Part shown: positions 43 through 4,984 of the stretch, piece by piece
How the letters are laid out: the number at the start of each line of letters is the position of its first letter
Position numbering within the stretch: the first letter of the stretch is position 1
Notes under the pieces: generated by a model
The model's input: the letters and a program-made list of their open reading frames with translations, nothing else
Databases searched by the model: none
What the model was told of the DNA's origin: nothing
Program-made: the position numbers and the translations under genes
Virus record (IMG/VR): IMGVR_UViG_2619619126_000013
Origin: a virus
Taxonomy: Duplodnaviria; Heunggongvirae; Uroviricota; Caudoviricetes
DNA: 4,984 bases
Direction: 5' to 3' (one strand)

Positions 43-1083
43 TTATTTAGACGCAAGCGCCGCCTCAATTACAGATAATCTTTGTCTTAATTCTGCGTTT
101 TCTTCTTCCAGTGCTGTTATTCTGTCGTCTGACTCTCTGGCTACCTGAACAAGCAAGCCAGTAACACCAGAATAATCTACTGTGTAATAACGTTCACCTT
201 CTTCACCTTCCGATCCGCTCGCACCGTCCTGATATTTCATTGCGGAACCTACAACTTCTGGGATTGCTTCCAGAGCTTCCTGTGCAATGACACCAGCATA
301 GGGCATACCGTTTTCTTTAAGCGTGTATGTATAGCCGTTCATTTTACGGATGCGGTCGGTTGCATTATCGATCACCTGAATGTTGTCTTTCAGATCCCGG
401 TCGGAATGCTGGTTAAATGCGGTGGCATGACATGCACCATTAACGCTTAACATATAGGTGTTATCGGTATTTTTCTGCGCATAGAACATATAAGCGCCAC
501 CATCAACACCGACTTCATAAACAACAGGACGGCTGGAATTTCCCCATAATAACGTCGACACACCAGAATACGCCGTACCTTGCGTGTTTAGTGTCATGGT
601 CGACCCGTGATTAGCATATTTGATCTGCAATGAGTCTGTATTATCAAACTTAATAAGCGCGTTACTTCCCCGCACACCATACGACATGAGACAGTTCCCC
701 ATCTTAAGGTAACCATCACTGCCTGGAAAAATTAAAGTTCCTCCGTAAAGATCACTAAAGTCCCAAAAGATACCTTTTGTCCCGTTATGTGTGACGATCC
801 TCGTCATTGTATCTTTAGTACCATCAATATTTTTTCTGGTATATATGTCACTATAAGCGTTTTCCGTTTCACCAGTCTTATTTGACAAATGCAGCTTACC
901 GCTGAATATAGTTCCAGTTGTTGGCAATGTTTTTTGATCATAGATTACATTGCAATAACCATTCCATGTTGTTTTATTGTCTACATAAGATTTTGTTGCG
1001 TAGCTTCCTTGATCGTTTTTTAATTTGCTAACGTCGGATTTTAGCGTTTTGATGTCATCAGGAATTACTGTCGATGTAGCCAT
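43..1083 (-). CDS. Tail fibre / tailspike-like protein with C-terminal intramolecular chaperone (peptidase S74-type, autoproteolytic) domain
   Basis: The 346-aa ORF has a strong ribosome-binding site (GAGGAAGAAAA then ATG). Its C-terminal roughly 120 aa carry the hallmark of the self-cleaving chaperone domain found on endosialidase-type tailspikes and the T5 L-shaped fibre: HSDRDLKDNI ... GYTYTLKENG ... GVIAQEALEAIPEVV ... YYTVDYSGVTGLL, then a coiled-coil tail (ITALEEENAELRQRLSVIEAALASK). The N-terminal roughly 225 aa are Gly/Thr/Asn/Tyr-rich, as expected for a beta-rich fibre tip. Sample blocks 841-900 and 961-1020 are 22/60 and 19/60 G+C. Confidence 0.85.
   Translation of the reverse strand: MATSTVIPDDIKTLKSDVSKLKNDQGSYATKSYVDNKTTWNGYCNVIYDQKTLPTTGTIFSGKLHLSNKTGETENAYSDIYTRKNIDGTKDTMTRIVTHNGTKGIFWDFSDLYGGTLIFPGSDGYLKMGNCLMSYGVRGSNALIKFDNTDSLQIKYANHGSTMTLNTQGTAYSGVSTLLWGNSSRPVVYEVGVDGGAYMFYAQKNTDNTYMLSVNGACHATAFNQHSDRDLKDNIQVIDNATDRIRKMNGYTYTLKENGMPYAGVIAQEALEAIPEVVGSAMKYQDGASGSEGEEGERYYTVDYSGVTGLLVQVARESDDRITALEEENAELRQRLSVIEAALASK
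46..405 (-). other. Intramolecular chaperone / autoproteolysis domain of the 346-aa fibre protein (predicted cleavage at Ser227)
   Basis: The Ser codon of the SDRDLKDNI motif maps to + coordinates 403-405 (gga, reverse complement TCC), checked codon by codon down to K232 at 388-390. The domain runs to the C-terminus. Cleavage is inferred from family knowledge, not observed. Confidence 0.7.
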
Positions 1084-1092
1084 TTTTCTTCC

Positions 1093-1374
1093 TCACATCC
1101 AGCCACGAAGTTGATGCTCAACAGCAACCACGTATTCATCGAATAATGACGATATTTGCGAATCATTAATGATGCGCACGTTTACAAAATATCCGTCTTC
1201 CTTAACACATACCGGTTCGCCATCTTCAGTCAGTTCTCCGGTTTCTTTGTACACGTTACCTATCACGTCGATAAGAATATCATCCTGCATCGACTCGTCA
1301 TCATAATAGCCAATACTCTCCATAAAGGCCGAAAAGTCGGCCCTGTCTTCAAATTTGAGTGTTAAATCTTTCAT
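1093..1374 (-). CDS. Hypothetical small, highly acidic protein (93 aa), translationally coupled to stf; candidate fibre assembly or accessory factor, function unknown
   Basis: Its ATG overlaps the stf stop (TAATG at 1372-1376). A GGGGGAG Shine-Dalgarno lies about 8 nt upstream. By hand count it has about 22 Asp+Glu against about 6 Lys+Arg in 93 residues. Its stop TGA (1093-1095) overlaps the GAGGAAG ribosome-binding site of the next gene. I recognise no family; it is too short and too acidic to be a lambda-type Tfa. Confidence 0.7.
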   Translation of the reverse strand: MKDLTLKFEDRADFSAFMESIGYYDDESMQDDILIDVIGNVYKETGELTEDGEPVCVKEDGYFVNVRIINDSQISSLFDEYVVAVEHQLRGWM

Positions 1375-3587
1375 TAGATTGACTCCCCCACCTGAGCATC
1401 AGTCAATGCCTTGTGCCATATTCTGAAATTCCTGACATGACCAAATAAATGACGTAACCCGGCTGTAGTCTGGCCTCCAATACGGATAATTGCGGTGTTC
1501 TGAATACAGGACCATGTGGTTTTTGTTTCGCTGGATATATGCCCGTTACTTACTGAGCACGTAGACTGCTCTGACTTTACACGCATCCCCATAACCATTT
1601 TTTCAAGCGATGCGTTTTCGTTTACCCGTCTGTTAGCTCCTCCAATATCGCAATAAGGAAATCCGTCGTAATCTGTTGAACGACCGAAGCCAAGAATAAT
1701 AGCCGCTCCGGTTTGATGACCGCCGGTATCAAAAACACGTGGCGCTGCATTTGGCGTTTTATACCAGTTCTTATGTACCTCACAAAGAACCGTAAAAGGA
1801 AGATTATAAAGATTATTCTTAATTGGAACTGTAACTATATCGCTTGCGCGGGTCGCCGCCGTCGCTCCTGATATAATAAAAGATGATACACAAGGCCCAT
1901 CTTCTACTTGTGGGGTGGCCAGATAAATATAGTCACCAGATACGGTTGCCCCGCTCTGCTTAGGAGAATACTGTATCTGAGAGCCTATTTTTAACTCCCC
2001 ATCAATTGCCTGAATTGTTGCCTCTGCAAAAATCCATCCGGTAGCTTCGTCCTTTCTGACTCTCGCTGTAATCCTTGAGGCAGCACCGCCTGTCATATTA
2101 ATTTCAAGCGTTTGTGTATCAATATACGCATCACCAAGAAAAGTTGTTGCGCTACCGTCATATTTATCAAACCGGATACGCAACCTTACCTGCAGTTCTG
2201 TTTTAAAACGACATGAGGTTGTCACGTGTTTATTATCGCCTGAGACATCAACTGACTTTGTTGCAGCAATTGATGCCATATTAATGGCTGAGGTTTGCCC
2301 AATCAGAGAATCGTTGCAGACAAACTTTCCATAGGTAAAACCAAAATTATCCGTCCCTGTTTCGGGCACATCCATATTTGACGATCGCCCCCAACTGGCA
2401 GGGCTTTCCGAATTGAGCATGTAGTTTGTTCTTTGCCCCTCAATAAGCAGGCCATCACGTTCAAATCGTGGCTCGTCAATGGCAGCCTCTGTCAGCACAC
2501 CAGATTTGTTAATATAGGTTGCTTTCGATGCACGTTTAAACTTAACAATCTTGTCGCCAGGCATCGTTATTTCATCGTCACCAATAACAATTTTTTTATA
2601 TGACGGCGAAAAGCCCGTAATCATATCCAGCGAATCGTTAAATGGTATCCACACATCAGGCAGCGGCTGTAAGACATATTTATACGGCTCCGCAGCCTGG
2701 CTTGCGTACTCTCTGGCTGCATCTTCGCTTGCTTTAGCTGCCGTCTGGCTTGCTGCCGATGCTTTCGCTGAGTTCGCAGCCGCTGTTTCGCTCACCTTTG
2801 CGTTGGTTTCACTGGTTTTTGCTGCTTTTTGACTGTTAGCTGATGCAGTGGCAGAAGCAGCCGCCGCGCTTGCAGAACTGGCTGCGGCACTCTCGCTTTG
2901 AGCCGCTGCATCCTGACTGCTTTTCGCCGCAGTTTCACTGGCTTTGGCATTCGTTTCGCTGGTCTTCGCTGCCGTCTGGCTGGACTTTGCGTTAGTTTCA
3001 CTCGTCTTCGCAGCTTTCTGGCTGTTAGCCGCAGCAGTTGCTGATCCAGCTGCTGAAGTCGCAGAACCGGCTGCCGCGCTCTCGCTTTGGGCTGCTGCAA
3101 CCTGGCTGTTTTTTGCCGCAGTTTCACTGGCTTTAGCATTCGTTTCGCTGGTTTTCGCCGCGTTCTTCGATGATGCCGCTGCAGTTTCGGATTTCTTTGC
3201 CGCCGCTGCGCTCTGAGAGGCGGCTTCAGCGTTGCGTGCCGCTTCTTCCACCATTTCCTCAAAACGACGCAATGCCTCCGGCATGACATCATCTTCCGTC
3301 ATGGCACCGAGAAAATCATTCAGCGTACCTGGTCTGGAACCTTCATAGACGGTAATGGTCCCGGCATGTGAAGGCGGAAAACCTTCAACCAGCAGGGTGA
3401 CGCTGTACTGGCCATACTCAACATCCATGCTGTAACGCCCGGCTTCATCCGGATTTTCAGAGGCCACCGTGTTCACCAGTACCGTGGTGCTGTTACGCTT
3501 TGCCTTCAGTTGAATAGTGCAGTTCTGTATTGGTTTTCCCGCACCATCTTTCAGCACACCTGAGATTTTTACTGCTGCCATATCCAC
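1374..3587 (-). CDS. stf: Side tail fibre protein (Stf-like): conserved N-terminal tail-attachment domain, Ala/Ser-rich heptad shaft, and a divergent C-terminal receptor-binding region ending in a LamG/ConA-like lectin domain
   Basis: The 737-aa ORF opens with MDMAAVKISGVLKDGAGKPIQNCTIQLKAKRNSTT, which matches the N-terminus of lambda Stf as I recall it (MAVKISGVLKDG...). Residues about 113-299 are an uninterrupted Ala/Ser/Thr heptad array. The C-terminal roughly 140 aa carry LamG-like signatures (PFTVLCEVHKNW ... RVFDTGG ... IIRIGGQ ... LFGHVRNFRIWHKALTDAQV). The track start at 3587 is GTG; the ATG at 3579-3581 with GGAG 6 nt upstream is the more likely true start. The stop TAA overlaps the next ORF's start (TAATG). 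Confidence 0.88.
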   Translation of the reverse strand: MDMAAVKISGVLKDGAGKPIQNCTIQLKAKRNSTTVLVNTVASENPDEAGRYSMDVEYGQYSVTLLVEGFPPSHAGTITVYEGSRPGTLNDFLGAMTEDDVMPEALRRFEEMVEEAARNAEAASQSAAAAKKSETAAASSKNAAKTSETNAKASETAAKNSQVAAAQSESAAAGSATSAAGSATAAANSQKAAKTSETNAKSSQTAAKTSETNAKASETAAKSSQDAAAQSESAAASSASAAAASATASANSQKAAKTSETNAKVSETAAANSAKASAASQTAAKASEDAAREYASQAAEPYKYVLQPLPDVWIPFNDSLDMITGFSPSYKKIVIGDDEITMPGDKIVKFKRASKATYINKSGVLTEAAIDEPRFERDGLLIEGQRTNYMLNSESPASWGRSSNMDVPETGTDNFGFTYGKFVCNDSLIGQTSAINMASIAATKSVDVSGDNKHVTTSCRFKTELQVRLRIRFDKYDGSATTFLGDAYIDTQTLEINMTGGAASRITARVRKDEATGWIFAEATIQAIDGELKIGSQIQYSPKQSGATVSGDYIYLATPQVEDGPCVSSFIISGATAATRASDIVTVPIKNNLYNLPFTVLCEVHKNWYKTPNAAPRVFDTGGHQTGAAIILGFGRSTDYDGFPYCDIGGANRRVNENASLEKMVMGMRVKSEQSTCSVSNGHISSETKTTWSCIQNTAIIRIGGQTTAGLRHLFGHVRNFRIWHKALTDAQVGESI
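2691..3251 (-). repeat. In-frame heptad-encoding repeat array (21-nt period) within stf, containing a 189-bp higher-order tandem duplication
   Basis: The protein reads as about 27 consecutive 7-residue units without stutter (for example TSETNAK / ASETAAK / NSQVAAA / QSESAAA). At DNA level there are near-identical direct copies offset by 189 nt: tttgcgttggtttca at 2797-2811 against tttgcgttagtttca at 2986-3000, and cgcagtttcactggctttggcattcgtttcgctgg at about 2928-2962 against the same motif at about 3117-3151. At protein level NSQKAAKTSETNAK occurs at residues 188-201 and 251-264. Confidence 0.85.
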
Positions 3588-3645: not shown

Positions 3646-4245
3646 TCAGAATTTATAACCGACACCCACGATGAAACCGTCAGTGCGCCAGTCACCACTG
3701 CCGGAGCCTTCATAAGCAATATCAATGGCCACGGATTCGGTCGGGTTAAACTGCACGCCAGCTCCCCACGCCAGAGACGTGTTGCTGTGGCGACCGTCAT
3801 CACTTCCGGTCAGCACATCGTGCGTTTTCCCCTTATTGTCAGTTACGCGGAGATAATCCCCGGAAAAAGTCGACACACGGCTGTAAGCCATACCCGCCAT
3901 CGCATACGCGCTGAACCATTCATTCACGCGCACAGACGGCCCCACCATCACGCTGAACCAGCGGTTACGCACGGAATCTTCATGCCAGCGGGTATTGCTG
4001 TAACGGGTAAGCTGGCGATTCTTGTCTCCTGCATAGCTGAATGACGTCACCAGCCCCAGTGTGTCCGTAAACTCATAACGGTATTTCACGTTAATCCCGT
4101 TAAGATCATCGCTGCCGGGAACGTTCGTCGAGGCATGAAGATACCCCGCGCTCAGCGTGGACTGATGTTCAGATGCCCATGCAGGCGCACCGGATACGGA
4201 CAGACAGATGGCTGCGGACAAAATGGCTGCACAAACTTTACGCAT
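3646..4245 (-). CDS. lom: Lom outer membrane protein (Ail/Lom/OmpX/PagC family 8-stranded beta-barrel), a lysogenic-conversion moron
   Basis: The 199-aa product has an N-terminal signal peptide ([24 protein letters not shown], then SEHQ), alternating beta-strand character and a C-terminal aromatic end (GVGYKF) typical of outer-membrane barrels. It is near-identical, by recollection, to lambda Lom. A GAGAGG Shine-Dalgarno lies 6 nt upstream of the ATG, and the gene sits immediately downstream of J. Confidence 0.92.
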
Positions 4246-4312: not shown

Positions 4313-4984
4313 TCAGCTGATACTGATGCCTGCGGTGGCTTTCTTCATCACCACAACCAGCAAATCGCTGATACTTGCTGTGGGATACCAGTCATTTACC
4401 AGCCATGCTGACACCGAAAACTCCAGCGTCATGTGACCGTGACCGGCAGGCATATCAATAACGCCACTGTAAATCAGCGTATTATCCAGCGCGGTACGGT
4501 TATAAATTTCAGCACCGTTTTTCCGCACTATCAGACGGCATGAGGAGTAAATATCAGTATGCTCTCTCTCATGTTTAGCGCCGCTGAATGCCACCGCCGG
4601 AATAACAATCTGCCGGTCAAACGGCTGATCGTCATAAACCCTGACGGTAATGGTCCCTGATGGCCACCGCTCCGGTGCACGGGAGTCCCGGGGGAAAGCT
4701 TTGCCCACTGTTTTAACGAGATCGCCTTCAATCTGGTTGGCGGACAGTTTTCCCAGAACCCGACAGTTTTCGTTAATCGTGACGTTGTTGAGCGTCCCGG
4801 AGTTCGCATTCACGTTACCGCTGATATCGGCATTTTTCGCCGTCAGCCGCCCGTCCGGTGTCAGGGAAAATGCCGGAGGATTACCGCCGCTGGTAATGGT
4901 GGGGGCCGTCAGGCGCTTCAGGAACACGTCGTTCATGAATATCTGGTTGCCCTGCGCCACAAACATCGGCGTTTCATTCCCGTT
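4313..4984 (-). CDS. J: Host specificity / central tail fibre protein J, C-terminal part only (5' end of the gene lies beyond the window)
   Basis: The frame stays open from 4966 to the window edge (codons upstream of the listed Met read N-G-N-E-T-P with no stop), so the gene is truncated by the window. The stop is TGA at 4313-4315. It sits directly upstream of lom with a hairpin terminator between, as in the lambda J-lom arrangement. The sample block 4801-4860 is 35/60 G+C by hand count. The family call rests on synteny and my recollection of gpJ, not on a search. Confidence 0.85.

Follow-up and report, generated by a model that had tools for sequence, protein, structure and literature searches.

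A lambda-type side tail fibre ending in a two-domain module with a LamG/concanavalin A-like jelly roll, encoded by an Escherichia coli prophage

Host recognition begins with a reversible step that is set by the side tail fibres. The fibre of phage lambda with its OmpC-binding, gp37-like needle is the textbook example, and it usually serves as the chassis for engineering. In Ur-lambda, StfN makes a dodecameric collar on the tail (PMC12617516), and the lateral fibres of siphophages of the Drexlerviridae and Queuovirinae have been proposed, in general terms, to use O-antigen glycans as primary, non-essential receptors (PMC8594841). We analysed a stretch of 4,984 nucleotides (IMG/VR record IMGVR_UViG_2619619126_000013; hereafter the window), which originates from a lambda-like E. 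coli prophage and carries the genes of interest in the lambda order J-lom-stf, all on the minus strand. The subject of this study is the side tail fibre gene stf (1374..3587), whose longest open reading frame (ORF) comprises 737 amino acids (aa) and matched PHROG 1419 ('tail protein') with an E value of 0. A first-pass annotation, made from the letters of the window, had suggested that the distal tip of Stf is a LamG/concanavalin A (ConA)-like lectin domain and not a lambda-type tip. We found that the far end of Stf keeps none of the needle-like tip of lambda and that a beta-sandwich of the ConA/LamG type is located there.

The tip domain, as delimited by profiles, models, fold searches and conservation, spans aa 583-737 of Stf (1377..1841). 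The minus strand of positions 1374-1820 codes for residues 590-737 plus the stop codon, and all motifs on which the lectin assignment had been based were found on this strand between residues 597 and 733 (1389-1799). They are PFTVLCEVHKNW (aa 597-608, 1764-1799), RVFDTGG (aa 617-623), AIILGF (aa 629-634), IIRIGGQ (aa 700-706) and the terminal motif FGHVRNFRIWHKALTDAQV (aa 715-733, 1389-1445). With the complete Stf sequence, phage_tail_N and a weak match to CarboxypepD_reg were all that Pfam returned at E<=1, and nothing LamG-like was among them. When the C-terminal fragment was compared alone with PF13385 (Laminin_G_3), it reached 19.3 bits (E 1.4e-3), a value below the gathering score of 27.6. 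Moreover, the alignment was limited to aa 681-733, corresponding to positions 98-150 of the 151 profile positions, i.e., the last third, and this partial match is the terminal motif noticed before. Such a sub-threshold score, obtained with an alignment of only the last 53 residues, is what one could expect if the resemblance of the motifs were due to chance and the tip belonged to the lambda/T4 gp37 type or to another trimeric type. Since the LamG signal was confined to the isolated fragment and remained sub-threshold, homologues were used for the fold test.

An exhaustive search with aa 507-737 against 1.84 billion representatives at 50% identity disclosed 232 clusters at E<=1e-3, most of which align to query positions of about 40-227 (Stf aa 546-733), usually at the C-terminus of the matching protein itself. 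A first homologue search had given only relatives with at least 76% identity; the diverse set was assembled by help of the 50% representatives and a profile built from distant members. Alignment A1 contains 48 diverged domain sequences sharing 20-85% identity with Stf (aa 540-737). PF13385 was matched by 41 of them at E<=0.01 (best E 9.5e-13), and the only other families matched were Pentaxin and the N-terminal lectin domain of sialidases, both of which belong to the same superfamily. Several homologues have precomputed PF13385 assignments, and one bears the NCBI name 'LamG-like jellyroll fold domain-containing protein'. Thus, the Pfam check that had been suggested for the tip left the fragment of Stf itself below the threshold, but gave values well above it for the homologues, and Stf belongs to PF13385 by transitive homology through these family members, not by its own score. 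The A1 profile was furthermore compared with all PDB sequences. The LamG-like domain of an S-layer-domain protein (4qvs_A) was found with an E value of 6e-9 over profile positions 44-194, in an alignment that begins at the DxVxxP strand and reaches the end. In this alignment LFGHIRNLRIWHKALTDAQLKEL is paired with LHGMIDDFRIFDRALSADEIKTL, which bears out the proposed pairing of the terminal motif of Stf with the usual ending of LamG domains. The CBM40 domain of pneumococcal NanA (4c1w_A) followed with 8.5e-7, and pentraxins, the pentraxin domain of GPR126, Hcn domains of botulinum toxins and domain 4 of AbnA were also found.

For modelling, an alignment of 44 sequences with 26-88% identity was compiled from two homologue searches. 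The AlphaFold2 model of Stf aa 302-737 had a mean pLDDT of 87.9 and a pTM of 0.86 and was all beta; the terminal domain has the curved two-sheet beta-sandwich of a jelly roll. Fold searches with the distal models gave matches to LamG/ConA-like folds and did not return any gp37-like or other fibre-tip fold, so that significant matches were not lacking and no other fold was matched with confidence. The family profile, the fold searches and the PF13385 matches of the homologues agree, and we consider the LamG/ConA-like fold of the tip to be nearly certain. The relationship to the structurally characterized members of the superfamily is distant, as 4qvs, AbnA domain 4 (5hon) and the sialic-acid-binding CBM40 domains (4c1w, 6er4) share only 8-18% sequence identity with the Stf domain, which in addition differs from PF13385 relatives in that it forms the end of a phage fibre and is preceded there by another beta domain.

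The same searches bear on a tip of the lambda type. Residues 302-737 are without similarity to lambda orf-314, which encodes the distal gp37-like part; the best BLASTP match between Stf and orf-314 had an E value of 5.8 and covered only eight residues. Phage_fiber and Collar domains including Phage_fiber_2 were absent from Stf in the Pfam scan. Furthermore, a Tfa-type gene (Caudo_TAP) was not found directly after stf, where an ORF of 93 aa without any Pfam or NCBIfam match is located instead. Together with the strong and independent profile and fold matches, these data leave a chance resemblance, or a tip of the lambda type, with a practically negligible probability. It is very improbable, too, that the ConA-like domain is an enzyme, i.e., a glycanase of the GH16 type or a polysaccharide lyase. 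Such enzymes share the fold, but the catalytic acidic motif of the ExDxxE type was not found in the LamG domain of Stf and enzymes ranked low in the fold searches; the enzymatic reading was rejected on these two grounds.

The LamG domain does not stand alone at the tip. It closes a conserved module of two domains (aa 306-737, about 430 residues), which most homologues possess as a whole unit. Its start (aa 306-349, 2541..2672) harbours the conserved motif QPLPDVWIPFNDSLD and short beta strands. It was recognized by conserved columns and by a jump in identity to the fibre of phage ESCO3 described below, and it represents a mosaic breakpoint. The following middle beta domain comprises aa 350-582 (1842..2540) and was defined by the conservation map and by its homology to the head-spike-fibre domain of a gene transfer agent (GTA). 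The NCBIfam model NF048003 (GTA_spike_fiber) matched aa 381-581 with 50.7 bits (cut-off 36; E 2.9e-13) over positions 1-181 of 182, which makes Stf a member of this family. A profile of the middle domain (A5) built from aa 345-582 of 21 homologues was searched against PDB sequences and revealed the head-spike fibre Rcc01080 of the Rhodobacter capsulatus GTA (RcGTA) with an E value of 1.2e-28 (1e-7 with the single Stf sequence). It also found the C-terminal appendage of gp17, the distal tail protein (Dit) of Shigella phage Sf11 (6.5e-17; 9occ_C aa 185-402), and the baseplate wedge proteins gp45 of E217 and gp46 of Pa193, both Pseudomonas phages (1e-10). In a Foldseek search of the PDB with the two-domain model, LamG matches and long, poor superpositions dominated; the best match over approximately 350 columns was Pa193 gp46, whose superposition was poor (TM 0.32-0.36).

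Rcc01080 shares with aa ~350-582 of Stf an invariant frame, PRFE...GLLxEGxxTN and QxE...SSxIxT...TRAxD. It differs from Stf in that a Leu-Gly repeat anchors it on the head as a single chain and in that it ends about 45 residues past the TRAxD motif, thus lacking a LamG domain. The RcGTA head spikes have been described as mediators of capsule attachment, and in the structures of Rcc01080 only residues 2-10 are resolved (PMC7296036). With a fluorescently tagged head-spike fibre, capsulated cells were bound far better than capsule-less ones (PMC10218006). For the Sf11 gp17 appendage, the authors left this part unmodelled and stated its function to be unknown (PMC12724387). Both proteins were considered as solved templates for the middle domain and discarded: the modelled part of the RcGTA spike is limited to the nine residues mentioned, so that it provides homology and function but no structure, and in gp17 residues 3-165 are modelled, the homologous part (aa 185-402) lying outside. 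In Pa193 gp46, E217 gp45 and Sf11 gp17, the homologue of the middle domain sits in the baseplate or Dit and not at a fibre tip. By these relationships, one adhesion-like domain is mounted at four different positions of the virion.

Two further observations concern the distribution of the module. A few long metagenomic proteins of 1433-1724 aa (P0177, P0215, P0222, P0234) contain it in tandem double copies comprising both the middle and the LamG domain. That the module ranges well beyond enterobacterial phages is shown by one homologue (P0235), which comes from a Flavobacteriaceae bacterium living in association with Bugula neritina.

Conservation within the module is confined to a frame consisting of aa 312-321, 352-391, 556-585, 612-621 and 702-731. 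In the middle domain, aa 352-391 and 556-585 are conserved, while the interior (aa 392-555) is hypervariable and rich in indels. The same pattern was seen in the LamG domain, whose first and last strands are kept (aa 597-621 and 702-731), while its centre (aa 622-701) is hypervariable and indel-rich. Variable regions held by conserved frame strands are the pattern that is expected of a specificity surface. Among the close structural neighbours found by the fold searches are domains with proven sugar binding, as the CBM40 domain binds sialyllactose and Hc fragments of the tetanus and botulinum toxins have been solved with gangliosides. By analogy with these domains we infer that the receptor of the Stf module is, on balance, probably a glycan, as had been suggested along with the lectin fold. 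A receptor of another class would be an outer-membrane protein, bound by the LamG-like head in the way laminin G/LNS and toxin Hc domains bind proteins. This is rather unlikely, though, as the homologue of the upstream domain binds capsule polysaccharide (PMC10218006), the closest neighbours in sequence and structure include the carbohydrate-binding domains CBM40 and AbnA D4, and the lateral fibres of related siphophages are thought to be directed to glycans (PMC8594841).

The proximal half of Stf, to judge from its sequence, is of the lambda type, and it is the tip alone that is not. The N-terminal collar/attachment domain (aa 5-134, 3186..3575) matched PF08400 (phage_tail_N) with an E value of 6.5e-67, and in combination with the gene order J-lom-stf this places the protein among the Stf fibres with the lambda collar. 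It is followed by a repetitive shaft rich in Ala and Ser (aa 135-305, 2673..3185), which was assigned by composition (39% Ala and 19% Ser in aa 115-300) and by its alignment to the proximal coiled-coil region of lambda Stf. Residues 5-290 were 58% identical to lambda orf-401, the N-terminal part of lambda Stf, from which the collar domain and the proximal coiled coil rich in Ala and Ser are formed. By analogy, the shaft is presumed to form a trimeric coiled coil like that of lambda Stf. The DNA coding for the shaft (2673-3292) also contains long ORFs in other frames and on the opposite strand, e.g., an Arg/Lys-rich ORF of 166 aa at 2792-3292. They are spurious, caused by the repetitive Ala/Ser-rich shaft sequence, and should not be taken for genes.

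The border between the two halves became apparent by comparison with the fibre of the virulent Nonagvirus ESCO3. Stf and this fibre share about 25-30% identity through aa 304, but approximately 96% in the whole part that begins with Q306 (QPLPDVW...). The DNA remains 92% identical across the ORF of 93 aa and most of the second fibre gene downstream of it (115-2669). On the basis of these identities, the module, the small gene and the second fibre gene have been exchanged as one cassette between phages of two lifestyles, temperate (lambdoid) and virulent (Nonagvirus), and the jump marks the junction at Q306 as a recombination hotspot. Phage 21, Drexlerviridae (PeterMerian/Bas05, SLUR29), Queuovirinae (VogelGryff/Bas25, ESCO3) and a number of T5-like and rV5-like phages share this distal module (41-96% identity) and have the small gene behind it, whereas the N-terminal attachment regions of their fibres differ and are suited to each tail. 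These fibres are true members of the module family. DNA of the distal module and the small ORF was matched in 1772 of 5426 complete E. coli genomes; 403 of the matching genomes cover at least 80% of the query, some of them with 100% identity. The fibre type is thus widespread, and some homologues are already labelled LamG-like in databases, so that Stf joins a known family. Our literature searches on LamG-type side or lateral fibres yielded no paper on the module, its receptor, its structure or the small partner gene in coliphages.

The partner gene (1093..1374) was assigned to PHROG 1361 (E 2.5e-46), a group of unknown function, and its product of 93 aa is acidic (pI 4.05) and gave no match in Pfam, NCBIfam or the PDB. 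Its ATG overlaps the stop codon of stf by one base (TAATG); the gene is translationally coupled to stf. In 181 phage records a homologue comes next after the fibre gene, and synteny and coupling extend over five phage groups, namely lambdoid phages (phage 21), Drexlerviridae (SLUR29), Queuovirinae (VogelGryff), T5-like (phA11) and rV5-like phages. We propose that the protein may serve as a cognate folding or assembly factor, or as an accessory subunit, in place of Tfa.

Nine bases past this ORF starts the gene of a second short fibre of 346 aa (43..1083), which was identified by PHROG 4563 (tail fiber) and by PF13884 (Peptidase_S74; E 6.3e-14, aa 227-278), a C-terminal intramolecular chaperone domain. 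It is without an evident tail-attachment domain and may for this reason be a branch fibre, making Stf a possible branched fibre. Branched lateral fibres have been documented (PMC4728585), and one could imagine that the main role of the distal module is that of a branch point, at which conserved surfaces of the module or the 93-aa protein dock the 346-aa fibre as the real receptor binder, as in DT57C and phiEco32. The third gene of the cassette would fit to such an arrangement in part of the phages: an S74-type short fibre follows here and in 2G7b, ESCO3 and VogelGryff, and it was co-transferred with the module in ESCO3, while the T5-like phage phA11 has a fibre of 586 aa at this place. However, in phage 21 and SLUR29 the 346-aa fibre is missing from the corresponding locus and the third gene does not encode a fibre, although both phages have the module and the 93-aa gene; the module therefore functions without a second fibre. 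The interior of the module is hypervariable like a specificity determinant, and homologous domains occur on heads, Dit proteins and baseplates with no fibre docked to them. We therefore regard a module serving mainly as branch point as improbable, and even more so than a protein receptor; branching and receptor binding are nevertheless not exclusive and could coexist in the module.

Taking these data together, we favour the view that Stf is a mosaic fibre, in which the collar and shaft of lambda carry a two-domain lectin-like module assisted by the 93-aa partner and directed to a surface polysaccharide. We assign this proposal as a whole a probability of about 70%. The collar domain and the shaft (aa 1 to ~305) would fix the fibre to the tail, where it presumably forms trimers like those of Ur-lambda, and the module from Q306 onwards would stand in for the hinge, the gp37-like needle and the Tfa chaperone of lambda. 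Each of the three chains would end in its own globular two-domain lectin-like head; one head per chain is suggested because, on the GTA head, the homologous module acts as a single chain. A surface polysaccharide may be bound by the hypervariable inner part of the middle domain together with the loops at the centre of the LamG domain, the candidates being O-antigen, the core of lipopolysaccharide (LPS), capsule and enterobacterial common antigen (ECA). Binding is expected to be weak per site but multivalent and hence of high avidity, which would allow fast reversible adsorption before J meets its receptor in the outer membrane. The 93-aa protein would replace Tfa as folding/assembly factor of the module or be a small accessory subunit, and the host range could shift by a swap of the whole cassette comprising the module, the 93-aa gene and optionally a second fibre.

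Several points weigh against this proposal. Proteins and lipids, too, are ligands of LamG, pentraxin and Hcn domains, and for this reason the fold alone does not fix the class of the receptor. Phages with this fibre type have been isolated on K-12 or DH5a, both of which are without O-antigen; on these hosts the fibre is therefore either dispensable or binds a K-12 component such as the LPS core, ECA or a protein. The middle domain gave only weak matches to CBM_4_9, CBM35 and cenC as hints to its fold, the role of the 93-aa protein is read solely from synteny, and the PF13385 score of Stf itself is, as mentioned, sub-threshold. A more far-reaching idea is that Stf has a distinct, Tfa-independent kind of fibre ending, in which a trimeric shaft passes into three independent two-domain lectin heads in place of an intertwined trimeric tip, the heads being the adhesion module that is carried singly by other virions on capsid vertices, Dit rings and baseplates. 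The 93-aa protein would then be a new kind of dedicated assembly factor, or an adaptor that recruits the optional branch fibre as well, and the three genes would form a plug-in cassette for host range, moving between temperate and virulent phage families. We put this forward as a tentative possibility.

The remaining part of the window fits to the lambda-like character of the prophage. The closest phage record is the lambda-like Escherichia phage 2G7b, which shows 95% identity over 95% of the window and an identical gene order. The 3' end of the central tail fibre gene J (4313..4984), which extends past the end of the window, was recognized by PF12421 (Ig_GpJ_C; E 1.7e-38) and by the annotation of 2G7b, and lom (3646..4245) by PF06316 (Ail_Lom; E 2.7e-120). 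The longest ORF of stf begins at a GTG (MDMAAVKISG...), with an ATG at codon 3 (position 3581). As lambda Stf begins with MAVKISG, this ATG is favoured over the GTG and is probably the true start, which would give a product of 735 aa.

Our result does not overturn the current understanding of side tail fibres; it assigns a domain to a type of fibre that is very common, and this assignment is testable. Stf represents the other common solution found in E. coli prophages, namely the lambda collar and shaft combined with a globular two-domain lectin-like head and a small partner gene. The same type is present in phage 21 and in phages of the Drexlerviridae, Queuovirinae and T5-like groups that are used for therapy. 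The breakpoint at QPLPDVW is a natural splice point for the engineering of fibres. If glycan binding holds true, host range and serotype tropism of prophages could be predicted from aa 392-555 and 622-701.

Compared with the fibre of lambda (Ur-lambda), Stf of this prophage has the J-lom-stf locus, the collar domain and the Ala/Ser-rich proximal shaft in common, and the role in faster reversible adsorption is presumably common to both fibres. The distal part is different. Lambda Stf continues with a hinge and an intertwined gp37-like needle, which carries a receptor-binding domain of the OmpC type and is accompanied by Tfa, none of which is present here. At the place of the needle and Tfa, the prophage possesses the globular lectin-fold module and the unrelated 93-aa gene.

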